Below, in pieces: positions 4,088 through 37,590 of a DNA stretch of 64,000 nucleotides. The notes under the pieces were generated by a model. That model ran no database searches, had not been told where the DNA came from, and saw nothing but the letters and a program-made list of their open reading frames with translations. A program made the position numbers and the translations under genes. The stretch spans positions 155,947-219,946 of the forward strand of contig CAKPFG010000001.1 of NCBI GenBank assembly GCA_934153675.1, given 5' to 3'. This DNA is from an uncultured Bacilli bacterium. Lineage in GTDB: Bacteria > Bacillota_I > Bacilli_A > RF39 > UBA660. Numbering within the stretch: the first letter of the stretch is position 1; every line of letters starts with the position of its first letter.

Positions 4088-4861
4088 ATGATGAATGAGT
4101 TAAATAATTTGTTACACGAACTAGGCATTTCTAAGGTTAAATTGGCAAAATTTTTAGGAGTATCAAGACAAATGATTTACAATTATTTGGAATTAGATGA
4201 CGTAAATAAATGGCCTAAAGATAAAAAAGTATTATTATTTAATTTGCTTGGTATAAAATCTTATGATGAAATGAAAAACATTAAGGTTAATACTGATTAT
4301 ATAATGGATGTAGAACTTAGATTAAATAGTTTAAATTTAAGAAAAAATGAAAATAATAATGATGATATATATAATGGTTTAAATGAAAAAGGAAAACAAT
4401 TATTATCTAAAACTATAGATATTTTGAAGGATTATATTGAGGATGAAAAAACAGGATATAAAATTGGAGAATATTTGTTTCATTTCATTCAATCTTTAAA
4501 TAATAATGATGAATTAAAGTATTTACTTGGGTACATTGTTAAGGAAACTGGATATGTAAAAGCTAATGAATTTATTTTTGATGAAGATAAACAGTATGTA
4601 TTTGAAAGTATTTTATTTACTGCAATGTCTTTATATCATAGTGGAAAAGCATCTAAGAATCGTTTAATAGAAGCACATAGAAGATTTGAAACGCAAATAG
4701 ACCATAAAATTGAAGAAAAAATGAGTAGAACTATGGAACTTATGAATATTAAAAAACAAGCTTTAAAAGAACTTGGAATTAATGAGATAAATGAAAATAA
4801 CATTAGTCAGGTATTTGCTAAGATAACAGAAATTCAATCAAGAAAAAGCGCTTTTAAATAA
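4088..4861 (+). CDS. XRE-like HTH DNA-binding protein
   Basis: N-terminal LGISKVKLAKFLGVSRQMIYNYL helix-turn-helix; ATG at 4088 after GGGAGTGA. Confidence 0.5.
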   Translation: MMNELNNLLHELGISKVKLAKFLGVSRQMIYNYLELDDVNKWPKDKKVLLFNLLGIKSYDEMKNIKVNTDYIMDVELRLNSLNLRKNENNNDDIYNGLNEKGKQLLSKTIDILKDYIEDEKTGYKIGEYLFHFIQSLNNNDELKYLLGYIVKETGYVKANEFIFDEDKQYVFESILFTAMSLYHSGKASKNRLIEAHRRFETQIDHKIEEKMSRTMELMNIKKQALKELGINEINENNISQVFAKITEIQSRKSAFK

Positions 4862-4976
4862 TAAAAAATAAAAAAACAATAATTCCTATAATGTATATTA
4901 TGTTAACTTCTATAAAATTATTATTTTTTGTATATATATTAAGAAAAAGATAATAATATTATTGGGTGATTAATTT

Positions 4977-5081
4977 ATGAAGAAAAGTAAAAAAGCTAAA
5001 TCTAATAAGAATAATAATATTAGTAAGCAAATGAATGATTCTAGTGAAAATAATTCATTTAATACTAACAATTGTAAATAA
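4977..5081 (+). CDS. Small basic protein (34 aa)
   Basis: GGGTGAT RBS 7 nt upstream of ATG; followed directly by a stem-loop terminator; MKKSKKAKSNKNNNISKQMNDSSENNSFNTNNCK. Confidence 0.3.
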   Translation: MKKSKKAKSNKNNNISKQMNDSSENNSFNTNNCK

Positions 5082-5087
5082 CCCACA

Positions 5088-5120
5088 AAAAAAGAAATCA
5101 TTTAATTGATTTCTTTTTTA
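5088..5120. terminator. Bidirectional intrinsic terminator hairpin
   Basis: AAAGAAATCA-tttaat-TGATTTCTTT flanked by A-run and T-run; its 3' half overlaps the last codons of the minus-strand TSCPD gene. Confidence 0.5.
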
Positions 5121-5356
5121 TAATTAATTAATGCTTGTGCTATTTGGTCTGGACATGATGTTTTTCTAGCTGCACATTTAATATCTTTTAATGTATTTAT
5201 TACAGTATCAATATCTTTATTAATGCAAAAAGCTCTAACACCAAGAGAATTTCCAGGACATCCTCCAATAACTCTCATATCTTTGATAATATTATTTTCT
5301 ATTAAAAAATCCATTTTTCTAGCACAAACACCTTGTGGCTTATATTCATAATTCAT
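5102..5356 (-). CDS. TSCPD-domain protein (TIGR03905-like)
   Basis: MNYEYKPQGVCARKMDF...GGCPGNSLGVRAFC...KCAARKTSCPDQIAQAL matches TSCPD family; start at internal Met with RBS AAAGGAA. Confidence 0.7.
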   Translation of the reverse strand: MNYEYKPQGVCARKMDFLIENNIIKDMRVIGGCPGNSLGVRAFCINKDIDTVINTLKDIKCAARKTSCPDQIAQALINYKKEIN

Positions 5357-5373
5357 AATCAAAATTCCTTTCT

Positions 5374-6264
5374 TTAATCTCCATGTGGATGATAACATTT
5401 AAAATTACCTTTTAATTGTTCTTTTGAAATATGTGTATATATTTGTGTTGTTGATATATCACTGTGACCTAGTAACTCTTGTATTATTTTTAAATCGGCC
5501 CCATTATTTATCATATGGGTAGCAAATGAGTGACGAAGAGTATGTGGAGATATTTCTTTTTTGATATTTTTTTCCTTAGCTATTTTTTTTATTATTTTAA
5601 ACAAACCTTGTCTGGTCATTTTTTTTCCGTGATTATTTAAGAATAAATCATCGTTAATTTCTTTTTTAAAAAAACTAGATCTTACTTTTAAATATTCATT
5701 TAATGCATTATTAGCAATTTCTCCAATAGGAACAATTCGTTCCTTACTCCCCTTCCCCATTGTCCTTACAAGACTATCCGTTATATCAATATCATATATT
5801 TTTAAATTAACAAGTTCAGACACTCTAAGCCCAGTGGCATACATAAGTTCTAACATGGCTTTATTTCTAATAGAATAATTATCATATGTTTGAATATCTA
5901 ATATCTTATTTATTTCATCTATTGATAAAACCGACGGTAATTTTTTTGTTAATTTTAAAGTAACAATATTTTCTGCAGGATTAAATTTTACATAATTATT
6001 TATTACTAAATATTTATAAAATGATTTTATTGATGAAATATTTCTTGCAATACTTTTTTCACTATGGTTATTTTCTTTTAAATGCTTTAGATACCATTTA
6101 ATATCATCATTTTTAATAAGAATAGTATCTTTATCAATGGCTTTATAAAAGTTATTCAAATCGGTTTTATATGCGATGATAGTATTATTACTGTAATTTT
6201 TATCTATTAATAAATATGTACAAAATTCATCAATATACTTTTTCATAAACACTTCCATATACAA
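5374..6264 (-). CDS. Site-specific tyrosine recombinase XerC/XerD family
   Basis: C-terminal HTLRHSFATHMINNGADLKIIQELLGHSDISTTQIYTH catalytic region (R..HxxR..Y); true start probably the MKKYIDEF Met (~6246). Confidence 0.8.
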   Translation of the reverse strand: MYMEVFMKKYIDEFCTYLLIDKNYSNNTIIAYKTDLNNFYKAIDKDTILIKNDDIKWYLKHLKENNHSEKSIARNISSIKSFYKYLVINNYVKFNPAENIVTLKLTKKLPSVLSIDEINKILDIQTYDNYSIRNKAMLELMYATGLRVSELVNLKIYDIDITDSLVRTMGKGSKERIVPIGEIANNALNEYLKVRSSFFKKEINDDLFLNNHGKKMTRQGLFKIIKKIAKEKNIKKEISPHTLRHSFATHMINNGADLKIIQELLGHSDISTTQIYTHISKEQLKGNFKCYHPHGD

Positions 6265-6333
6265 AACAATTATATTTACTATTTTATTATATCATATTTT
6301 TATATAATTTGATATAATATTCTAGGTGATTGA

Positions 6334-7539
6334 ATGAAACCTTTAGCAATAAGAATGAGACCAAAAAATATAAGTGAAGTTATTGGTCAAAAACATTTAG
6401 TAGGAAAAAATAAAATAATTTCTAATTTCGTAAAAAACAATTACATAACTTCAATGATTTTGTATGGGAAACCTGGTATTGGTAAAACAAGTCTTGCTTT
6501 TTCTATTGTAAATAGTATTGATAAAAAATATAGATTATTAAATGCTACCATTAATAATAAAAAAGATTTTGATATTGTAGTTGAAGAGGCTAAGATGTAT
6601 GGAGAGCTTATTGTTATAATGGATGAAATTCATAGATTAAATAAAGATAAACAAGATCTACTTCTTCCCTATTTAGAAAGTGGCTTAATAATATTAATCG
6701 GTCTTACAACTGCTAATCCGTATCATAGTATTAATCCTGCAATTCGTAGTAGATGTCAAATCTTTGAATTAAATTCACTTACTGATGATGAAATAATAGA
6801 AGGAATAAATAGAGTTATTTTAAATAATGAACTTGAAAATATCAAAATAGACAAACAATCTATAAAATATATAGCTAAAATAGCAAACGGAGATTTACGA
6901 TATGCTTATAATTTGTTAGAAACAGCATATTATTCATCTGATAAACATATAGATATTTCTCTATTAGAACAATTGTGTAATAAAACTAATTTTTTATCTG
7001 ATAAGAATGAAGATGGATATTATGATACTATAAGTGCATTTCAAAAAAGTATTAGAGGATCAGATGTTGATGCATCACTACACTATTTAGCAAGATTAAT
7101 TTTAAGTGGAGATTTAGATATTATATATAGAAGAATGAGTGTTATTGCCTATGAAGATATAGGACTGGCCAATCCAATAATGGGGGTTAAGGTTGATGCT
7201 GGGATTAACGCTTGTATTAGACTTGGTTTACCAGAAGCACAGATTATTCTTTCTAATTTGGTTATTGAATTAGCACTATCACCAAAATCAAACAGTGCCT
7301 ATTTGGCTATTAAAGATGCTTTAAATGATATTAATAAGGGTCTTGGTGATAATATTCCTCCAAACATAAAAACAAATGCGAGAGATTATAAATATGCTCA
7401 CAATTATCCTAATCACGTTGTAAAGCAACAATATTTACCAAATAAATTAAATAAAAAAAGATATTATAAGCCTCAAAATAATAAATATGAAAATAATTTA
7501 AAACACATAAATGATAATTTAAAAAAGATATTAGATTAA
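6334..7539 (+). CDS. rarA: Replication-associated recombination protein A (AAA+ ATPase RarA/MgsA)
   Basis: LRPKNISEVIGQKHLVG...GKPGIGKTSLA Walker A, MgsA C-terminal domains; RBS AGGTGAT. Confidence 0.85.
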   Translation: MKPLAIRMRPKNISEVIGQKHLVGKNKIISNFVKNNYITSMILYGKPGIGKTSLAFSIVNSIDKKYRLLNATINNKKDFDIVVEEAKMYGELIVIMDEIHRLNKDKQDLLLPYLESGLIILIGLTTANPYHSINPAIRSRCQIFELNSLTDDEIIEGINRVILNNELENIKIDKQSIKYIAKIANGDLRYAYNLLETAYYSSDKHIDISLLEQLCNKTNFLSDKNEDGYYDTISAFQKSIRGSDVDASLHYLARLILSGDLDIIYRRMSVIAYEDIGLANPIMGVKVDAGINACIRLGLPEAQIILSNLVIELALSPKSNSAYLAIKDALNDINKGLGDNIPPNIKTNARDYKYAHNYPNHVVKQQYLPNKLNKKRYYKPQNNKYENNLKHINDNLKKILD

Positions 7540-7547
7540 TATCTTTT

Positions 7548-8483
7548 TTAAATATTTAATAAATATAATTCTAAGGCCATATTTTTATCAACTTCTCCAG
7601 ATTTAATTTTAATATCTAAATTGGCTAGTTTAGATATATTTTCAATTAAAACATCATTATCATAATTATAACCCTTTTGAATAGCCAAATGAACAGGATA
7701 TCTTTTGACATGTAATATTTGTGCTATATCATCTTCAGTATACCCCTTATTATATAAAATTTTAGCTTGATATATTAATCTAAATTGATTAGAAAGTAAA
7801 ATAATTATTTTAATAGCTTCTTCCCCATTTTTGATTAACTCTTTATATATTCTAATTATTTCTTTTTTATTTTTAGAAATAATATTATCTATAAAAGCAA
7901 ATATATTAATATTTATTTTTTCAACAGTACATTCAATGATATCTTTATTAGTAATTACTTTATTATCTATTTTGTATAATTTTAATTTTTCAATTTCATT
8001 ATTTAAATTATTCAAATTATTTGAATTAGTAAAAGTCCTTTTAATAAGCAAATTAATAGTTTCATTGGTAATACTATAATTTGAAAATAACTTTTTTACA
8101 TATGAATTAAGATTAGATATTTTATTGAATTCCTTTATTATTCCTTTTTTATTTATTAATTTATATATTTTTTTTCGCATATCCAATTTTTCTTCATTAA
8201 CTCTGAATATCAAAATAGTATTATTATTAAAATTGTCTATATATTTTTCTAAATTAGTGGTATCCTCTACTTTTTTACCTGTAAATATTTCATTAATATT
8301 AACAATAATTATCTTTTTAGAATCAAATAGTGAAAAAGTATTAGCATCATCTGTTATTTTATTTATATCATTAATATTGTCATACTTTATTATGTTAAAA
8401 TTATCTATTTTTTCTTTTTTTATAATGCTATTTATATAATCATCAATCAAAGGAACTAAAGTTCCATATAGTAAATATATCAT
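7548..8483 (-). CDS. holA: DNA polymerase III delta subunit-like (HolA)
   Basis: Size and N-terminal MIYLLYGTL.. pattern of HolA; lies upstream of smc with 4-nt overlap; weak similarity only. Confidence 0.5.
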   Translation of the reverse strand: MIYLLYGTLVPLIDDYINSIIKKEKIDNFNIIKYDNINDINKITDDANTFSLFDSKKIIIVNINEIFTGKKVEDTTNLEKYIDNFNNNTILIFRVNEEKLDMRKKIYKLINKKGIIKEFNKISNLNSYVKKLFSNYSITNETINLLIKRTFTNSNNLNNLNNEIEKLKLYKIDNKVITNKDIIECTVEKININIFAFIDNIISKNKKEIIRIYKELIKNGEEAIKIIILLSNQFRLIYQAKILYNKGYTEDDIAQILHVKRYPVHLAIQKGYNYDNDVLIENISKLANLDIKIKSGEVDKNMALELYLLNI

Positions 8484-11428
8484 TTTTTCTCCTCAATACT
8501 ATCTAATTTAACACTGACTAATTTACTAACACCACTTTCTTGCATTGTTATACCATAAAGAACATTAGCATACTCCATTGTTTTCTTTTTGTGTGTAATA
8601 ACAATAAACTGTGTTTTTTCTTTTAACTTAATTAAATATTGACCAAATGATTGAACATTAACATCATCCAATGCTGCTTCAACCTCATCAAGAACACAAA
8701 ATGGCAATGTTCTCGATTTTAAAATAGCAAATAATAGTGAAATTGCTGTAAATGTTTTTTCACCACCACTTAAAAGGCTAATATTTTTGAGCGTTTTTCC
8801 TGGTGGAGATGCAATAATATCAATTCCTGTTTCTAATATGTTATCCTTATTGGTAAGCTTTAAATGGGCATTTCCACCTTTAAATAATTCTTTAAAGGTT
8901 TCTTGAAAATTATCATTAATGATATCAAATGTTTTTACAAATTCCTTAATCATAATTTGATCCATATCTTCTATAATTTTTAATAATATGTTTTTTGCGT
9001 TAATCAAATCATTTTGTTGCTTTAATAAAAATTCATATCTTTCACTTTCTTTTTTATATTCTTCAATAGAAGTTAAATTTATCATTCCTAAAGATTTTAT
9101 TTTTCTTTTTATAGTATTGACATTATCACGAGCCTCATCAACATCAATGCTAAGTTTGTACATACTTTTAGCCTTTTCATAAGTCATATTATATTCTTCA
9201 TTTAAAGTATTAAGCCAATTATCTAATTTCACATCATAACGATTAATTTCTATTTCTAAATTTTTTAATTGTTCATTTTTTTCATAATAAAGGGTATTTT
9301 CTTTCTTGATAGAATATGAAAAATCGCTAAGAATATTTTCTAATTCTTTTTTATTTTCGCTAAGAACTTTTATTTTATTTACAATTTCGTTTTTATAATT
9401 TATTTCATTATAATACTGATCAATAATACTTTCCTCTTCATTTGATAATTTATCATGAATAATGTTATTTGTTCCGATAAGTTCGTTTGTAATATTGGTT
9501 AATTTTTTATTTAAATTGATAATATTGTCTTTCTTTAAATTAAGACTATCGTTTTTAACCAATTTTTCTTTATTGTATAAATATAACTTATCTTCACTGT
9601 TTCTAATATATGTATCAGTTTCATTAATATCATTTTCTATATTTTCAATATTTTTTTGATAATTTTTATCTTCTTTAATTTTTCTTTCTAATTCATATTT
9701 ATCTAAGATTATATTTCTTGTTTTAATATTACCACCAGTTAGAGAACCACCAACATTAATTATTTCTCCATCTAAAGTGACAATTCGATAATTAAAATTA
9801 ATAAGTTTACTTAATCTATTTGCAGTATCAATGTTATCAACTACTATAATATTTCCTAATAAATTTTTAACAATATTGCTATAATTTTTATTATATTTAA
9901 CAAGATTGGATGCAATATCTATAAAACCATCTATATTAATTAAATTAATCATATCCTTATTTATATATTTTTCCTTCATAATATTTAATGGTAAAAAGGT
10001 AACACGTCCTAATTTATTTTCTTTTAAATAATTAATAGCTTCACTGGCACAAACTTCGTTTTCAACAATTATGCTAGATATATTAGAAGCAAGAGCAATA
10101 CTAATTGCTTTAGAATACTTTTCTAAAACTTCACACACTCCACCAACTGTATCATAAATACCACGTAATTTAGGATTTTGTAATACTTTTTTTACAGCAT
10201 ACGGATAATTAGAATTATTATCAATATTATCGCGAAGAATATCTATTTCATTACTGTTTTTTTTATAAAGTCGTACTTGTTTATTTAACTTATCAAGCAA
10301 TAATTCTTTTTGCTTTTTTATTTCGTCATAACGCTTATTTTCTTCTTTTATTTTTTCATTACAGTTATTATAATCTTTTAAAATTAATTCCATTTCTCTA
10401 TTTGTACTTTTAATTTCATTTTTTATTTTTGATTCTTGCTCTTTTAAATCAATAATGTTATTATGTAATTTAAAATTATCAACTTGATATTTCTTTCTTT
10501 CTAAAATAATATTTTTTTGACTATTTATTTGTTCTACTTTTTCTGTTACAACAAGTAATTTATCTTGAAGTTCTTTTATCTTTTTATCAAGATTAGTAAT
10601 TTTTACTTTAACTTCCAAAGATTTGGCTTCATTAGTAGAATTATTAGTAGAAATACTGCTCAAATCTTGCTTTAGTTCATCTATTTTTTCTTTCTTTTCT
10701 TTATAGGTATCATTTGTATTAGTTATATCTAAAACAATTAAAGATATTTCCAATTGTTTTAATTGCTCTTTTAAATCTTGATATTCTAATGCTGTTTCGC
10801 TTTGCTTTTTTAATGGTTCTATTCTATTTTCCAATTCCTTGATAATATCATTAACTCTATCCATGTTAACATGTGTCTTATCTAGTTTTTTTAGTGCATC
10901 TTCTTTTCTTTTTTTATATTTGGTAACACCAGCGGCTTCTTCAAATATGCTTCTTCTATTCTCTGGTTTACTCGATATTATTTCTTCAATTTTTCCTTGT
11001 TGTATTATATTAAAACTTTCTTTTGCTATACCACTATCCATTAATATATTATAAACATCTTTTAAGCGAACCTTTTCGCCATTTATAAAATATTCATTTT
11101 CGCCGTCTTTATAAAGTCTTCTTTTAATAGAAACCTCGTCAAAACTTAAAGGCAGATAATTGTCATGATTATCAAAAATTAATGTTACACTAGCCGCATT
11201 CATAGCTCTTCTACTTTTAGAACCAGCAAAAATGACGTCTGTTGTTTTATCCCCTCTTAAAGATTTTATTGATTGCTCTCCCAATACCCATCTTATAGCA
11301 TCTACAACATTACTTTTTCCACTTCCATTTGGTCCTACTATACCAGATATATCACCGTCAAAATCTATTATCGTATTATCAGCAAACGATTTAAAACCAT
11401 GTGCAATCATTTTTTTTAAATACATCAA
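8480..11428 (-). CDS. smc: Chromosome segregation protein SMC
   Basis: N-terminal GFKSFAD...GPNGSGKSNVVDAIRWVLGEQS Walker A, long coiled coil, C-terminal LSGGEKTFTAISLLFAI...LDEVEAALD signature/Walker B. Confidence 0.85.
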   Translation of the reverse strand: MMYLKKMIAHGFKSFADNTIIDFDGDISGIVGPNGSGKSNVVDAIRWVLGEQSIKSLRGDKTTDVIFAGSKSRRAMNAASVTLIFDNHDNYLPLSFDEVSIKRRLYKDGENEYFINGEKVRLKDVYNILMDSGIAKESFNIIQQGKIEEIISSKPENRRSIFEEAAGVTKYKKRKEDALKKLDKTHVNMDRVNDIIKELENRIEPLKKQSETALEYQDLKEQLKQLEISLIVLDITNTNDTYKEKKEKIDELKQDLSSISTNNSTNEAKSLEVKVKITNLDKKIKELQDKLLVVTEKVEQINSQKNIILERKKYQVDNFKLHNNIIDLKEQESKIKNEIKSTNREMELILKDYNNCNEKIKEENKRYDEIKKQKELLLDKLNKQVRLYKKNSNEIDILRDNIDNNSNYPYAVKKVLQNPKLRGIYDTVGGVCEVLEKYSKAISIALASNISSIIVENEVCASEAINYLKENKLGRVTFLPLNIMKEKYINKDMINLINIDGFIDIASNLVKYNKNYSNIVKNLLGNIIVVDNIDTANRLSKLINFNYRIVTLDGEIINVGGSLTGGNIKTRNIILDKYELERKIKEDKNYQKNIENIENDINETDTYIRNSEDKLYLYNKEKLVKNDSLNLKKDNIINLNKKLTNITNELIGTNNIIHDKLSNEEESIIDQYYNEINYKNEIVNKIKVLSENKKELENILSDFSYSIKKENTLYYEKNEQLKNLEIEINRYDVKLDNWLNTLNEEYNMTYEKAKSMYKLSIDVDEARDNVNTIKRKIKSLGMINLTSIEEYKKESERYEFLLKQQNDLINAKNILLKIIEDMDQIMIKEFVKTFDIINDNFQETFKELFKGGNAHLKLTNKDNILETGIDIIASPPGKTLKNISLLSGGEKTFTAISLLFAILKSRTLPFCVLDEVEAALDDVNVQSFGQYLIKLKEKTQFIVITHKKKTMEYANVLYGITMQESGVSKLVSVKLDSIEEKK

Positions 11429-32389: not shown

Positions 32390-35245
32390 TTAATTATGTT
32401 TTATTTTAAATATAGCTGTTGATATTCCTAGTAATGATATAATCATTGTACTAACTATAAAAACTATATTTTTATCTTTTGTATTAGGCGTTTTGGAGTT
32501 ATACATAACTATCGTTTGTATGTCTTTAGTATTGGTAACTGTAAATTTAATTACCTCATAACTTAAATCATATCCATCTGGGGCTTGTATTTCTGTTAAT
32601 GTATAATTTCCACTTGGTAAAGCTATATAATGAGGTGTATTTCCTGATACCCATCTATCTATTTCGTTACCATTTGCATCTTTAATAACTAATGTTGCAC
32701 CGGCTAATTCTTTTTTCGTTGTTATATCTTGTTTTGAAATTTCTACCTGATTTTTATTATCAGTAGGAACAACAGGTACAGGTGTTTTTTCTTGTACATT
32801 ATACATTACTACCTTAGTAACTGTACCATCTCCCTTTACAGTAAAAGAAACGTTTTCTTCTTTAAGAACATATCCATCTGGAGCCTGAATTTCTGTTAGA
32901 GTATAATTACCTTTTTTTAAATCTTTAATAACATGAATTTCACCAGTTGATGTCCATTTATCTATTTCCTTACCATTTGCATCTTTTACAACTAATACAG
33001 CACCAGCTAATTCTTTTTTCGTTGTTATATCCTGTTTTGAAATTTCTACCCCATTTGGTTTTCTTACATTTTTAAAATCAATATTAATAGTTTTATCATC
33101 GTTTGATACAGTAAATTTAATTACTTCTTTAGAAAGTTCATATCCTTCTTTAGCTTTAATTTCAGATACTGTATAAACACCAACTTTTAAATTCTTTAAT
33201 GTATATGGTTGTTCTTTCGTTGTAAATTGTGCAATTTTATTACCCTTTGCATCTTTTACAACTAATACAGCACCACTTACAGGTTTTTTTGTTTTGCTAT
33301 CAATCTTATTAATATTAACAACAGTTGTTTTTTTAAGTTCATTATGCATAACTACCTTAGTAACTGTACCATCTCCCTTTACAGTAAAAGAAACAGTTTC
33401 AGTTTTTAATTTATAACCTTCTGGAGCCTGAATTTCTGTTAGAGTATAATTACCTTTTTTTAAATCTTTAATAACATGAATTTCACCAGTTGATGTCCAT
33501 TTATCTATTTCCTTACCATTTGCATCTTTTACAACTAATACAGCACCAGCTAATTCTTTTTTCGTTGTTATATCCTGTTTTGAAATTTCTACCCCATTTG
33601 GTTTTCTTACATTTTTAAAATCAATATTAATAGTTTTATCATCGTTTGATACAGTAAATTTAATTACTTCTTTAGAAAGTTCATATCCTTCTTTAGCTTT
33701 AATTTCAGATACTGTATAAACACCAACTTTTAAATTCTTTAATGTATATGGTTGTTCTTTCGTTGTAAATTGTGCAATTTTATTACCCTTTGCATCTTTT
33801 ACAACTAATACAGCACCACTTACAGGTTTTTTTGTTTTGCTATCAATCTTATTAATATTAACAACAGTTGTTTTTTTAAGTTCATTATGCATAACTACCT
33901 TAGTAACTGTACCATCTCCCTTTACAGTAAAAGAAACAGTTTCAGTTTTTAATTTATAACCTTCTGGAGCCTGAATTTCTGTTAGAGTATAATTACCTTT
34001 TTTTAAATCTTTAATAACATGAATTTCACCAGTTGATGTCCATTTATCTATTTCCTTACCATTTGCATCTTTTACAACTAATACAGCACCAGCTAATTCT
34101 TTTTTCGTTGTTATATCCTGTTTTGAAATTTCTACCCCATTTGGTTTTCTTACATTTTTAAAATCAATATTAATAGTTTTATCATCGTTTGATACAGTAA
34201 ATTTAATTACTTCTTTAGAAAGTTCATATCCTTCTTTAGCTTTAATTTCAGATACTGTATAAACACCAACTTTTAAATTCTTTAATGTATATGGTTGTTC
34301 TTTCGTTGTAAATTGTGCAATTTTATTACCCTTTGCATCTTTTACAACTAATACAGCACCACTTACAGGTTTTTTTGTTTTGCTATCAATCTTATTAATA
34401 TTTACCTTATTACCTTTTAAAGTAATTTTTCCATTCGCAAGAGCACTAGCTTTAGAAGTTATTTTTGTAGTTGTATTTGGCGTTAATTTTTGATAATTTT
34501 GCCCACAATCAAATTTCTTGGCAATGCTTATTGTTTTTTGACCAGATACTGTCAATTTGACATTAACGGTACTACCTACTTTAATCTTATCTTTTAAAAT
34601 TCGAACATAAAAAGTATTGCCTGATTTTTTATATACTTCTGCTTTAACATCTCCCGCTAATGAAACACTATAACTAGAATTTCCATTTTTAACATTAACT
34701 TTTATTTTATTAGAAACATAATAATTACCGGATAATTTAAAATTTAACGTAGATGATGATAATTTTATTTCATATTTTGCCTTAGCGTCATTATAAGCCT
34801 TTACAGCTGCATCATAAAATGGCTTTACACCATTCGTATTTCTAACATTGCGAGTAGTACTAATTCTATTTACTGAATTTTTTCCATTATAGTAATATAA
34901 AAATTCATTAATAGCAAGTTCTGAATAATAATAATTTTTTTGTGTTGGATTATTATTATATTTTTTTATAATAGCCGCAATACCAGATGCAACAGGTGTA
35001 CTATATTGACTAGTACTAAGTTTACAAGTATAACCTACATACTGTTTATGAAATGATAAACAAAAAACATTATATGAACCACTTGTTTTATAAAGCAAAT
35101 AATCATAGCCATTGTACTTTAATGTAACACCCTTTTTTACATTAGTTAATCGTGTTGGATAACTTTTTGCGTTTACTTTATAAGAATTACTAACCCCTAT
35201 AAACATAAGCAAAAAAATTGCCAAAATTCTAAAAATTTTCTTCAT
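32390..35245 (-). CDS. Cell-surface adhesin-like protein with eight SpaA/CnaB-type (prealbumin-fold) domains, signal peptide and C-terminal TM anchor
   Basis: Signal peptide MKKIFRILAIFLLMFIGVSNSYKVNA; repeated GAVLVVKDA(K/N)G...Y(T/L)...E(I/K)(K/Q)A(K/P)EGY modules; C-terminal hydrophobic IVFIVSTMIISLLGISTAIF without LPXTG. Confidence 0.8.
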   Translation of the reverse strand: MKKIFRILAIFLLMFIGVSNSYKVNAKSYPTRLTNVKKGVTLKYNGYDYLLYKTSGSYNVFCLSFHKQYVGYTCKLSTSQYSTPVASGIAAIIKKYNNNPTQKNYYYSELAINEFLYYYNGKNSVNRISTTRNVRNTNGVKPFYDAAVKAYNDAKAKYEIKLSSSTLNFKLSGNYYVSNKIKVNVKNGNSSYSVSLAGDVKAEVYKKSGNTFYVRILKDKIKVGSTVNVKLTVSGQKTISIAKKFDCGQNYQKLTPNTTTKITSKASALANGKITLKGNKVNINKIDSKTKKPVSGAVLVVKDAKGNKIAQFTTKEQPYTLKNLKVGVYTVSEIKAKEGYELSKEVIKFTVSNDDKTINIDFKNVRKPNGVEISKQDITTKKELAGAVLVVKDANGKEIDKWTSTGEIHVIKDLKKGNYTLTEIQAPEGYKLKTETVSFTVKGDGTVTKVVMHNELKKTTVVNINKIDSKTKKPVSGAVLVVKDAKGNKIAQFTTKEQPYTLKNLKVGVYTVSEIKAKEGYELSKEVIKFTVSNDDKTINIDFKNVRKPNGVEISKQDITTKKELAGAVLVVKDANGKEIDKWTSTGEIHVIKDLKKGNYTLTEIQAPEGYKLKTETVSFTVKGDGTVTKVVMHNELKKTTVVNINKIDSKTKKPVSGAVLVVKDAKGNKIAQFTTKEQPYTLKNLKVGVYTVSEIKAKEGYELSKEVIKFTVSNDDKTINIDFKNVRKPNGVEISKQDITTKKELAGAVLVVKDANGKEIDKWTSTGEIHVIKDLKKGNYTLTEIQAPDGYVLKEENVSFTVKGDGTVTKVVMYNVQEKTPVPVVPTDNKNQVEISKQDITTKKELAGATLVIKDANGNEIDRWVSGNTPHYIALPSGNYTLTEIQAPDGYDLSYEVIKFTVTNTKDIQTIVMYNSKTPNTKDKNIVFIVSTMIISLLGISTAIFKIKHN
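32885..34400. repeat. Near-perfect 543-bp tandem repeat (about 2.8 units) inside the adhesin gene, with diverged partial copies on both sides
   Basis: Period confirmed at 33043, 33586 and 34129 (TTTCTACCCCATTTGG...); each unit encodes one pair of SpaA-like domains (181 aa). Confidence 0.85.
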
Positions 35246-35509
35246 ATATACCCCCCAAAAGCGAATAAAATCATTCGTTATGCGAGTTATATTATCACAA
35301 ACTTTTCACTTTGTCAATTCTTTATCATTTTATAATCCCAGTAAATATGATTATGTAGAATAAAATAGTAAATTCTCTTTTTGTTGATTTACGAGAAATT
35401 AGTTTTATAATTTATATTGTTTCATTTGTCATGATAGGAGTATATTTTAAAATGAAACAAAAACACTTAACTCTTAAAGAAAGAGAATTTACTATTTTAT
35501 TCTACACAT

Positions 35510-36223
35510 TTAATAATAATCATTAGTTTTTTTAAGTATTTTTTCTTTTTCTTTATTGATTATAAAAAGAGCCGTATCATAAGTAATATATCCATTAGAT
35601 AAATTAGAGTCAAGACTATATGATTTAATATTATCATCATTTCTAAAGGTCAAAGTTGTCATATCCTTGATAGAATAAATATACCTATTTTCATCATATA
35701 ATCTTTCTGGTGACAGATCATATCCTATTATAATATTATTATTATATATAAAAATTTCCATTTTTGAACTTTTAGAATATTTAAAATTCTCAGTTACGTA
35801 ATATTTTTTACTTTTATAATAATTATCCCCTATATCTTTAGGGAAACTCTTAGCTAAATTAATTAAATCATTATAATTCATGCTATCTTTATTTAGTACT
35901 TCTTTTAAACTTGTAACCTGCATTTCACTTATGAATTCAGTTGAAAAATGATGATTTTCATAATCAAAATTATTACCATTAGAACATATTGATCCTATTG
36001 TTTTATTATCAATAATCGAATTATAATCATAATCATCACGATTTTTATAAATGTCAGTTCTATAGCAAATACTATAATTTCCATCCTTCGAAACCAAATA
36101 ATAATCATCTAAACTCTTACTGTTACATCCAGTAAAAAAAGATGAGGCAACTAAAACGCAGGAACTAACCTTTATTAAGTTTATTTTTTTAAATTTTTCA
36201 ATCCCATTAATATTTTTAATCAT
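35510..36223 (-). CDS. Lipoprotein, unknown function
   Basis: Lipobox SSFFTGCNSK; start probably the MIKNINGIEKF Met. Confidence 0.4.
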   Translation of the reverse strand: MIKNINGIEKFKKINLIKVSSCVLVASSFFTGCNSKSLDDYYLVSKDGNYSICYRTDIYKNRDDYDYNSIIDNKTIGSICSNGNNFDYENHHFSTEFISEMQVTSLKEVLNKDSMNYNDLINLAKSFPKDIGDNYYKSKKYYVTENFKYSKSSKMEIFIYNNNIIIGYDLSPERLYDENRYIYSIKDMTTLTFRNDDNIKSYSLDSNLSNGYITYDTALFIINKEKEKILKKTNDYY

Positions 36224-36840
36224 TATTTTTTTCTTCTTTCTATTATAGAGTATATACAACCACAAAAATCTTGTCGATATAAATTATATTTATAAGAAAG
36301 TTCTATACTTTTTTTATAACCATCTTTTTTCTTAAAATCAGCATAAAGGTATTTAATAGAATACTTTTGTTCTAAATCCTTTCCGATTTCATTTAACCAA
36401 CAAGCATTTTTATAAGGACTTATAGATAATGTTGTTGTAAAGAAATCAAAGCCTAATTTTTGTGCTAATCTAGCAGTATATTCTAATCGTAATTTATAAC
36501 AAATATAACATCTTTTTCCACCTTCTTTTTCTTGTTCTAATCCTTTTACAGAGGTAAAAAAATCCAAATTATTATATTCACAATCTATTATATTTATTCT
36601 ATTTTGATACATTTTCATATTAACAAATCTTTTTAATTCTTCTTTTCTTTTATTATATTCTACTTCATTTGTAATATTGGGATTGTAATATACTATACTT
36701 ATATAAAAATATTCATCTAACAATTTTAATACATATGATGAACAAGGAGCACAACAAACATGTAATAATAATCTAGGCTTATATGTCAATGAACAAAGAA
36801 TTTTTTCCATTTCTTTTTGATAATTCATAAATACCTCCAT
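36223..36840 (-). CDS. queH: Epoxyqueuosine reductase QueH (DUF208)
   Basis: LLLHVCCAPCSSYVL and second Cys cluster CGCIYS. Confidence 0.75.
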   Translation of the reverse strand: MEVFMNYQKEMEKILCSLTYKPRLLLHVCCAPCSSYVLKLLDEYFYISIVYYNPNITNEVEYNKRKEELKRFVNMKMYQNRINIIDCEYNNLDFFTSVKGLEQEKEGGKRCYICYKLRLEYTARLAQKLGFDFFTTTLSISPYKNACWLNEIGKDLEQKYSIKYLYADFKKKDGYKKSIELSYKYNLYRQDFCGCIYSIIERRKK

Positions 36841-36891: not shown

Positions 36892-37590
36892 TCAACATGC
36901 ATCATCACAATAATTATTAGAAATTTTCTTTAAATATTCTTGATAAATTCCACTTAATTCATCATATTGCTCATCTGTAAGATTACTATAAGCATCAATT
37001 TGTGATGAAACCGTAGATTGATGAGTACCAATTATCTTACCATTTTTTACAAAAACAACAAATGGTACATACATTCTTTTTTCATTAACTTTATACTCTT
37101 TTTGATTATCATCTTTTACAATATAATCATCAAGTTCACTATCAAGTAATTTTAATAATTTAAAATATCCCTTGCTACCTTTTATTTCCTTACCATTTTC
37201 ATCCTTTTTTAAAACTAACTTACCATCTTTTACTTCATAAAAATCTCTTTCCTTTTCCATATTCATATAATATATTTTATCTATATTATATTCTTCAGCA
37301 CTTTTTAATAAAACAGGGAGAGCTGTTCTACACCAAGGACATTCAGGAAAGCCAAAATATATAACGCCAGTTTTATTTTTAATTATATCAATTATCTCAT
37401 CATATGAGGAATATTTTATCGGATTAGAAGAAGAAATTGATATGTTTTTGATTTTCTTCCCTGTACTGCTTAAAGTACCATTCAAAGCCTCATACTCTTC
37501 CTTAAACTTTAAAGCATCATCTTTATCTATAGAACAAGCCGTAACAGTAAAAATCACAAATATAGCTAAAATATATTTTAAATATTTCAT
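36892..37590 (-). CDS. Thioredoxin-fold lipoprotein (CPWC active site)
   Basis: Lipobox TVTACSID; FGFPECPWCRTALPVL thioredoxin-like CxxC. Confidence 0.6.
   Translation of the reverse strand: MKYLKYILAIFVIFTVTACSIDKDDALKFKEEYEALNGTLSSTGKKIKNISISSSNPIKYSSYDEIIDIIKNKTGVIYFGFPECPWCRTALPVLLKSAEEYNIDKIYYMNMEKERDFYEVKDGKLVLKKDENGKEIKGSKGYFKLLKLLDSELDDYIVKDDNQKEYKVNEKRMYVPFVVFVKNGKIIGTHQSTVSSQIDAYSNLTDEQYDELSGIYQEYLKKISNNYCDDAC

Follow-up and report, generated by a model that had tools for sequence, protein, structure and literature searches.

A class II thioester domain heads a probable TIE-type adhesin with a unit-repeat stalk in an uncultured gut Bacilli lineage

Covalent thioester adhesins have been studied almost only in pathogens. 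In the Bacillus anthracis protein BaTIE, the thioester bond between Cys71 and Gln266 of the thioester domain (TED) has been shown crystallographically, and the bond-forming Gln of TEDs is carried by strand Q, close to the domain end (PMC6194298). A further motif, TQxxΦW, was attributed in 2018 to every predicted TED; its Gln and Trp are next to the bond, on helix 2, and are dispensable for thioester formation, and EfmTIE86 of Enterococcus faecium is an exception to the canonical motif in the detail of its Trp146 (PMC6194298). The same machinery appears in an uncultured, very AT-rich gut Bacilli lineage, in the stretch of 64,000 nt analysed here (the window; GenBank assembly GCA_934153675.1, contig CAKPFG010000001.1, positions 155,947 to 219,946). 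A gene on the minus strand of the window (32390-35245) encodes a 951-aa protein, which is probably a cell-surface fibrillar adhesin of the thioester/isopeptide/ester domain (TIE) type. The sequence-only reading of this window had already described the 951-aa open reading frame (ORF) as a surface adhesin built from alternating SpaA/CnaB-type A and B modules with a signal peptide. The ORF is real, with an ATG start and the stop codon at 32390-32392, and the exact protein is present in a public collection (P0268), where it and P0001 fall into one 90% cluster.

The most informative feature of the adhesin is its N-terminal domain (residues 27-278; 34412-35167, minus strand). It had been left as a domain of unknown type and is a class II TED, a relationship detected by profile-profile comparison and by fold only. 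A profile of the window protein's own N-terminal class (profile A1, 22 sequences) aligned to a profile of canonical TED N-termini (profile A2) over 244 columns, with a probability of 99.8% and an E value of 9e-28. Profile A2 in turn matched the B. anthracis TIE protein of PDB entry 6FWV, BaTIE, at E 8e-24, and the conserved Cys and Gln columns of its alignment fell on chain residues 40 and 235 of that entry; given that the construct starts at Glu35, these are consistent with Cys71 and Gln266 of BaTIE. Many distant homologues from the first homologue search carried PF08341, the Pfam model of the TED. The link to the solved TEDs runs through this transitive profile route and through fold comparison. 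Profile A1 itself matched no PDB sequence, a mixed TED profile matched SaTIE-TED alone (E 0.03), and a word-indexed homologue search with the head domain alone returned 3 proteins only.

Structure prediction, which the sequence-only reading had suggested, was carried out on the N-terminal domain and gave a TED fold. The AlphaFold2 (AF2) model of the head, made with a 27-sequence alignment, reached a pLDDT of 93.8 and a pTM of 0.86; the prediction from the single sequence (residues 1-368) reached a pLDDT of 37.5 only. TEDs were the sole strong PDB matches of the head model in the fold comparison, and the model shows the hallmark of class II, namely a beta-sandwich that interrupts the TED fold between helix 3 and strand P. 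Moreover, both bond-forming residues are in place. F61-C62-L63-S64 fits the motif [YFL]CΦζ of the bond Cys on strand C, and Y251-Q252-K253-L254-T255 fits the motif ΦQζΦΦ of the bond Gln on strand Q near the domain end. The predicted thioester Cys62 (35060-35062, minus strand) was invariant in 113 N-termini and in the mixed alignment A3. The predicted thioester Gln252 (34490-34492, minus strand) was invariant in A1 and A3, and its column, as aligned through A2, is that of BaTIE Gln266. When 27 diverse sequences were compared across both TED classes, only three columns were invariant, C62 and Q252 among them.

By fold and defining residues the adhesin is assigned to the TIE family, and its subfamily has, judging from the aligned sequences, an altered thioester environment. 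At the place of TQxxΦW the window protein reads S108-E109-L-A-I-N113, with ELAIN at 34907-34921 (minus strand), and its class as a whole reads [A/S]-E-L-A-I-N. Among the N-termini with E109, C74 and N113 were found in 55 of 55 and an inserted Q80-W81 in nearly all. Among those with Gln at position 109, C74 was found in 0 of 52 and TQxxΦW in most. The window protein has two cysteines beyond Cys62, namely Cys74 (35024-35026) and Cys247 (34505-34507), both within the TED on the minus strand, and these three are the only cysteines of its 951 residues. C247 stands five residues before Q252 (FDCGQNYQKL) and is invariant within the class. When 1.84 billion cluster representatives were searched exhaustively with HMMER, only 301 proteins passed E<=1e-3, and 31 passed E<=1e-30. 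With all proteins fetched, the full set C62/C74/E109/N113/C247/Q252 was present in 102 of 246 domain hits; C74 and C247 occurred together in about 127 hits, C247 alone in 8, and neither in about 50. Since C74 and C247 are nearly always found together, a disulfide between them is a reasonable inference. The ELAIN class is a small uncharacterised TED subfamily, missed, at the thresholds applied, by the models of Pfam and NCBIfam.

The motif Gln was also missing in some other TED relatives (P0101, P0109, P0118, P0110 and P0096), whose versions of the motif include ITGLAVW, ITAVTVW, ATKMAVW and AANVAIS. The loss of this Gln thus extends beyond the ELAIN class. The idea that E109 marks the loss of the thioester Gln itself, that is, a "dead TED", was demoted to a minor rival, because the bond-forming Gln is Q252, which is retained and invariant.

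Behind the head, the Pfam SpaA model PF17802 matched seven stretches of the protein (E 8.8e-123; 401 bits vs a gathering cut-off of 23.1). The domain order is A-B-A-B-A-B, an 11-residue Pro-rich linker and a diverged B'. Six SpaA/CnaB isopeptide-type domains, A1-B1-A2-B2-A3-B3, make up three 181-aa A+B units (residues 279-820; 32786-34411, minus strand); the linker TPVPVVPTDNK (residues 821-831; 32753-32785, minus strand) leads to the seventh domain, B4, of diverged B type (residues 832-918; 32492-32752, minus strand). A Lys/Glu/Asn triad was found in 7 of 7 domains. In the domain alignment these are K285/E333/N364 (A1), K375/E423/N454 (B1), K466/E514/N545 (A2), K556/E604/N635 (B2), K647/E695/N726 (A3), K737/E785/N816 (B3) and K838/E885/N916 (B4). 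The Lys lies in the first strand (VNINK-ID or VEISK-QD), the Glu in a Y-x-x-x-E-x-x-A-x-x-G-Y box, and the Asn in the last strand (FKN, MHN or MYN). When one A+B unit was compared with PDB sequences by phmmer, BaTIE was the top match (E 4.6e-18), followed by FbaB CnaB2, the SpyCatcher parent (E 1.8e-11). The K, E and N align to the ITK, KET and VQD/VKN positions of BaTIE, which are Lys384/Glu443/Asp464 and Lys475/Glu524/Asn555, where isopeptide bonds have been proven (PMC6194298). All seven stalk domains are thus of the isopeptide type by their residues, and each is predicted to self-crosslink. The alternating modules proposed at the outset are borne out by PF17802 and by the triads, which the sequence-only reading had advised to look for and which are there, at the sequence level, in every module. 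Its count of eight domains has to be lowered to seven SpaA domains; eight Ig-like domains are reached only if the beta-sandwich of the head is counted.

The stalk is encoded by a tandem repeat. The offset-543 self-comparison revealed a perfectly self-identical block with a 543-nt period at 32877-34402 (1,526 nt, 2.81 copies); the self-match is unbroken from 32877 to 33859 (983 nt), and near-identity extends down to about 32808. Tandem Repeats Finder (TRF) and repeat finding reported underlying half-units of 270/273 nt at 61-66% identity. Domains A2 and A3 are identical at 100% of nucleotides, as are B1 and B2; A1 differs from A2 at 5 nt, located at the 5' edge of A1, and B3 is 93.4% identical to B1/B2. 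The repeat had been described as three 100%-identical units of 543 bp with diverged partial units at both ends. The period and the perfect identity stand, the number is 2.81 copies and not three, and the orientation has to be corrected to the minus strand relative to the window coordinates. The diverged ends are seen in B3 and in B4, the more diverged B type.

The number of units differs among alleles of this locus. The 90%-identity cluster of the window protein has 14 members, namely nine 952-aa proteins, two of 951 aa, one of 770 aa and two truncated calls. The nine 952-aa alleles have the order A-B-A-B-A'-B3-B4. In the two 951-aa alleles (the window and P0280) the third A is a copy of A2, and the 770-aa allele has two units. 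A 589-aa protein with one unit (P0010) forms its own cluster and belongs to the same locus. Gene order was identical for all alleles with fetched contigs, and the flanks of L001 and L002 were ~99% identical to those of the window. Compared with the common 952-aa allele, the window protein differs almost only in residues 634-733, where the 70%-identical A' is replaced by A; this segment looks like a gene-conversion or unequal-exchange tract. Between the window protein and P0280, 21 residues differ, and 19 of them fall on seven unit offsets, each change being present in every copy. Such parallel changes are the pattern expected from concerted evolution or independent recent amplification.

Furthermore, whole-unit differences were found in a sister lineage, where P0005 has 1139 aa, P0015 and P0017 have 958 aa, and P0029 has 777 aa. 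Apart from single clean gaps, of 181 or 362 aa, the identity among these proteins is 99.1-99.8%. The repeat units in the P0005 lineage are only 63% identical to each other, so that short reads resolve them easily and the whole-unit insertions and deletions there are robust. The lengths in the family step by 181 aa (777, 958, 1139, 1320), and in most homologues the units within one protein are 58-87% identical. Whole-unit gain and loss in this adhesin family is real, and the exact state of this strain needs long reads. The repeat-number variation foreseen by the sequence-only reading is therefore present, in the 589-, 770-, 951- and 952-aa alleles at one locus as well as in the 181- or 362-aa indels of the sister lineage, and the recent expansion or homogenisation that it proposed fits the seven-offset pattern with each change in all copies.

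The C-terminus is tripartite and resembles a sorting signal (32393-32491, minus strand). TPNTK (residues 919-923; 32477-32491), the sole xPxT[GASNK] motif of the protein, precedes by four residues a 19-residue hydrophobic segment, VFIVSTMIISLLGISTAIF (residues 928-946; 32408-32464), which is followed by the basic tail KIKHN (32393-32407). Among the C-termini of 120 homologues, the window protein's class conserves ...MYNSKTP-x-T-[S/A/K]-[D/G]-[K/R]-N, a transmembrane (TM) segment and a basic tail, and other TED clades of the same low-GC lineage have VPNT[S/A], VPIT[A/D] or VENT[G/A/S]S at the equivalent position. Moreover, class B sortase genes lie directly downstream (within about 70-100 bp) of three paralogous TED adhesins in loci of metagenome-assembled genomes (MAGs), at L006 (2324-3532), L008 (2549-3685) and L009 (11438-12586); these adhesins belong to the window protein's class and end in KTPQTADRN, KTPNTSDKN or KTPDTAGKN. 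The three sortases matched the Pfam sortase model at E of about 1e-10 and the class B model TIGR03064 with 155-159 bits vs a cut-off of 153.75. They are unusually long (378-402 aa), with a ~190-aa N-terminal extension that includes a hydrophobic segment. One MAG, RUG12438, holds both a syntenic ortholog of the adhesin (L007) and a class B sortase locus (L009). The C-terminus had been described as hydrophobic and free of a sortase motif. The motif scan agreed on the hydrophobic segment and found no literal LPXTG, and the conserved TPxT[S/A/K] at the position of a sorting motif, adjacent to sortase genes in relatives, speaks against the wider statement.

In L006, the region 3' of the adhesin and its class B sortase (4161-10490) encodes a 951-aa dockerin type I protein, a 678-aa protein with SpaA domains and a 233-aa sortase, whose class C and class D matches stay below threshold. 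In this rumen MAG the region is possibly a pilus-like or cellulosome-related surface cluster.

The following mechanism is proposed on the basis of the TED fold, the conserved key residues, the triads, the alleles of different length and the sortase genes next to adhesins in relatives. After Sec export and removal of the signal peptide, the class II TED would fold and the Cys62-Gln252 thioester would form spontaneously. By analogy with the family, a nucleophile of the ligand, typically a lysine amine, would attack the thioester, and the bacterium would become covalently tethered to its target. The head would be carried by seven CnaB/SpaA domains, each predicted to be locked by a Glu-catalysed Lys-Asn isopeptide bond. 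At the other end, TPNTK, the TM segment and KIKHN would keep the protein in the membrane; the TPNTK region is most likely a variant sorting signal, at which, if the relatives are a guide, a class B sortase may cleave and link the adhesin to peptidoglycan in this organism. The 543-nt A+B units appear similar enough to recombine, whatever their true copy number in this strain, and unequal crossing-over and gene conversion would add, remove and homogenise them, so that strains would differ in stalk length (1, 2 or 3 units).

Several observations weigh against this proposal. The window protein gave no match to PF08341 at E<=0.1 and none to the NCBIfam TED-type models at E<=1, and in its class E109 and N113 take the place, in 55 of 55 sequences, of the TQxxΦW Gln and Trp, which normally hydrogen-bond the thioester cysteine. 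The three cysteines C62, C74 and C247 also permit alternative pairings. The head could accordingly have a TED fold and yet be non-reactive, with Cys62 free or disulfide-bonded and binding non-covalent. We regard this as unlikely. The invariance of C62 and Q252, within the class and across both classes, is hard to explain without the bond, the replaced Gln and Trp were reported as non-essential for thioester formation (PMC6194298), and the joint appearance and disappearance of C74 and C247 fits their mutual pairing, which leaves C62 for Gln252. The anchor is less clear-cut. Neither LPxT nor [LIV]PxT[GAS] occurs anywhere in the 951-aa protein, no sortase with a TLxTC-type motif was found in the 64-kb window, and none was found up to 10 kb away from the full-length L004 ortholog. 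In this species the motif Thr is followed by Lys, in relatives by Ser or Ala; known sortase substrates carry Gly, Asn or Ser at this position. The class II TED adhesin TIEpLS20, moreover, works without sortases and without a sorting signal (PMC8092201). A plain membrane anchor, in which the TM helix tethers an uncleaved protein and KTPNT is merely the junction between stalk and membrane, is thus a serious alternative, though the less probable one. It does not account well for the layout of motif, TM segment and basic tail, which is that of sorting signals, nor for the xPxT core that is kept while its neighbours vary across clades (TPNT, TPQT, TPET, TPDT, TPVT, VPNT, VPIT), nor for the three paralogous adhesins that bear the same signal directly before class B sortase genes. 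Since the window holds no sortase and Lys follows the Thr, processing of the adhesin by sortase B is only moderately favoured over simple membrane anchoring.

The repeat count calls for similar caution, as the copy number and perfect identity of near-identical repeats assembled from short reads are untrustworthy. De Bruijn graph assembly can turn near-identical tandem units into a loop, in which small differences are popped as bubbles and the loop count is guessed from coverage; the 983-nt perfect self-match is longer than ordinary short-read inserts. P0280 has the same 983-nt perfect self-match and 1,526-nt block on contig NODE_450_length_45627_cov_7.998135, whose name follows SPAdes and indicates 8x coverage, and the 589-aa P0010 lies on a 7.7-kb contig with a MEGAHIT-style k141_ name. 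It is therefore conceivable, if doubtful, that the perfect identity and the number of about three units are assembly products, that the true allele has diverged copies or another unit number, and that the 589- and 770-aa alleles are collapsed versions. The sequence-only reading had raised collapse in assembly; to this must be added, from the P0280 contig, that the perfect identity itself may partly be an assembly product. Nevertheless, the nine 952-aa alleles were assembled with 4-13 residue differences between units 1 and 2, which shows that modest divergence, where present, is resolved, and the only A domain of the 589-aa allele carries substitutions of its own. Together with the whole-unit indels of the sister lineage, between units only 63% identical, the resolved alleles indicate that copy-number change is real in the family though this particular count is uncertain. 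A different role for the whole protein, as a mating-pair (conjugation) adhesin like TIEpLS20 or as a pilus subunit polymerised by a pilin-specific sortase, is very improbable. TIEpLS20 is itself a class II TED adhesin (PMC8092201), a class C-like sortase and a SpaA protein lie nearby in L006, and weak matches to NCBIfam pilus proteins were obtained. These scores are far below the cut-offs (NF033396, 63 bits vs 600; NF033902, 62 bits vs 95), however, and the protein has no YPK pilin motif. The window is housekeeping chromosome in which no conjugation genes were seen, and the adhesin stands in a gene order conserved across at least four other species.

A more far-reaching interpretation supposes that the reactive centre has been rebuilt, with Glu and Asn in place of the helix-2 Gln and Trp and with the co-evolving pair C74 and C247 added. 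The TED subfamily might represent covalent adhesins that are switched by redox state or pH and that class B sortase anchors at a new TPxT[S/A] signal. A C74-C247 disulfide, if formed, would staple the Gln-bearing hairpin to the head lobe, and the formation or reactivity of the thioester could be gated by the redox state or pH of the gut. An extracytoplasmic thioredoxin-like lipoprotein, encoded two genes upstream in five species, might service C74-C247. We consider this combination improbable. The gene in question (36892-37590, minus strand) encodes a 232-aa lipoprotein-like protein with a thioredoxin-type CPWC motif and a weak match to the Pfam PedC-like model; it could be linked to the extra Cys pair of the adhesin, or its position could merely reflect conserved gene order.

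The adhesin gene has its own candidate expression and export signals. A promoter-like site (TTGACA, a 17-nt spacer and a TG-extended TAATAT; 10/12 consensus matches plus TG) was found at 35289-35317 on the minus strand; this is a pattern match only, in a region not enriched overall (28 such sites vs 23 expected). A Shine-Dalgarno-like G-rich run, GGGGGG (35251-35256, minus strand), precedes the ATG by 5 nt, and no terminator was predicted at the gene. Residues 1-26 (35168-35245, minus strand) resemble a Sec-type signal peptide, as had been proposed. They read MKKIFRILAIFLLMFIGVSNSYKVNA, with a basic N-terminus, a hydrophobic core and a predicted cleavage after VNA, before KS, and an equivalent N-terminus was present in all homologues.

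The surroundings are those of a chromosome with a G+C content of about 24% in the window. The window genes are housekeeping ones, including SMC, FtsA/FtsZ, UvrC, MutL, tRNA synthetases, NusB, XseAB and SpoIIP, and no tRNA genes and no Rfam families at gathering score were found in the 64 kb. Immediately upstream of the adhesin, a 251-aa protein with a lipobox-like N-terminus (FFTGC) is encoded at 35510-36265 (minus strand); it had no Pfam match and was 40-44% identical to its counterparts in four other species. The order PedC-like CPWC lipoprotein, QueH, 251-aa lipoprotein-like gene and adhesin is kept in four other species-level MAGs (L003, L004, L005 and L007), and this makes a mobile or conjugative origin less likely. 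Among genome records, the nearest are rumen (RUG) and rabbit MAGs of uncultured Erysipelotrichaceae, Bacillales or Bacilli, with a TED identity of <=61%.

Between the adhesin and its upstream neighbour, close to the 5' side of the promoter-like site, lies a 153-nt element (35354-35506) with perfect 27-nt inverted repeats (35354-35380 and 35480-35506) separated by 99 nt. It occurs only once in the window, forms a long hairpin when folded (z = -8.2) and holds a ribosome-binding site and the 24-codon ORF MKQKHLTLKEREFTILFYTFNNNH, which had been noticed earlier as an IS30-like fragment just upstream of the gene and is indeed present. An invertible promoter switch was considered for the 27-nt inverted repeat and rejected, because the orientation of the element is the same in four strain sequences (the window, L001, L002 and L013). 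On an unrelated 1.1-kb contig (L014), the same arm and spacer precede MKQKHLTLEEREFIEE..., which we take to resemble the N-terminus of an IS30-family transposase, and the contig then turns G+C-rich. The fixed orientation and the arm preceding an IS30-like start point to an internally deleted insertion sequence, and the element is probably a relic of the IS30 family.

The window protein is a Gram-positive surface adhesin of a known general type and no new kind of system, and the locus leaves the understanding of such adhesins in principle unchanged. Its value is more specific. About a hundred ELAIN-class sequences form a defined set for testing which parts of the TED active site are needed, and the locus clearly exemplifies a stalk that becomes longer or shorter in whole units of 181 aa. 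It also makes TPxT[S/A] a candidate for the motif that a group of long class B sortases would recognise. For the annotation of surface proteins in MAGs, the possible mis-assembly of perfect repeats is a practical warning.

Compared with the described systems, the closest is BaTIE (BasC/BA5258 of B. anthracis, PDB 6FWV), which has three stalk domains and LPATG and keeps TQxxΦW. The window protein, in contrast, has seven stalk domains in A+B units that appear to recombine, TPNTK, ELAIN and an extra Cys pair, and the two TEDs share only 11-12% sequence identity. The class II TEDs of EfmTIE86 (E. faecium, 6FWY) and SaTIE (Staphylococcus aureus, 6FX6) are 11-15% identical to that of the window protein; they have the canonical Gln/Trp motif and belong to LPXTG proteins of pathogens, not of uncultured gut Bacilli. 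The class I TED adhesins SfbI, Cpa and FbaB of Streptococcus pyogenes and CpTIE of Clostridium perfringens lack the beta-sandwich insert and differ in domain organisation and anchors. Class B sortase substrates include IsdC of S. aureus (NPQTN) and the (S/P)PxTG proteins of Clostridioides difficile. Their likeness to the window protein is one of sequence and consists of a non-LPXTG motif of the xPxT type, a TM segment, a basic tail and, in relatives, an adjoining sortase gene; the window protein differs from them in its TPxT[S/A/K]D motif, and the sortases of its relatives are unusually long. TIEpLS20 (gene 34 of the Bacillus subtilis plasmid pLS20) shares the class II TED, an Ig-like stalk and the lack of a canonical sorting signal (PMC8092201). 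TIEpLS20 is plasmid-borne, is needed for conjugation and has a toast-rack-like C-terminal region, whereas the gene described here is chromosomal, has a conserved syntenic position and encodes a C-terminal TM tail that resembles a sorting signal.

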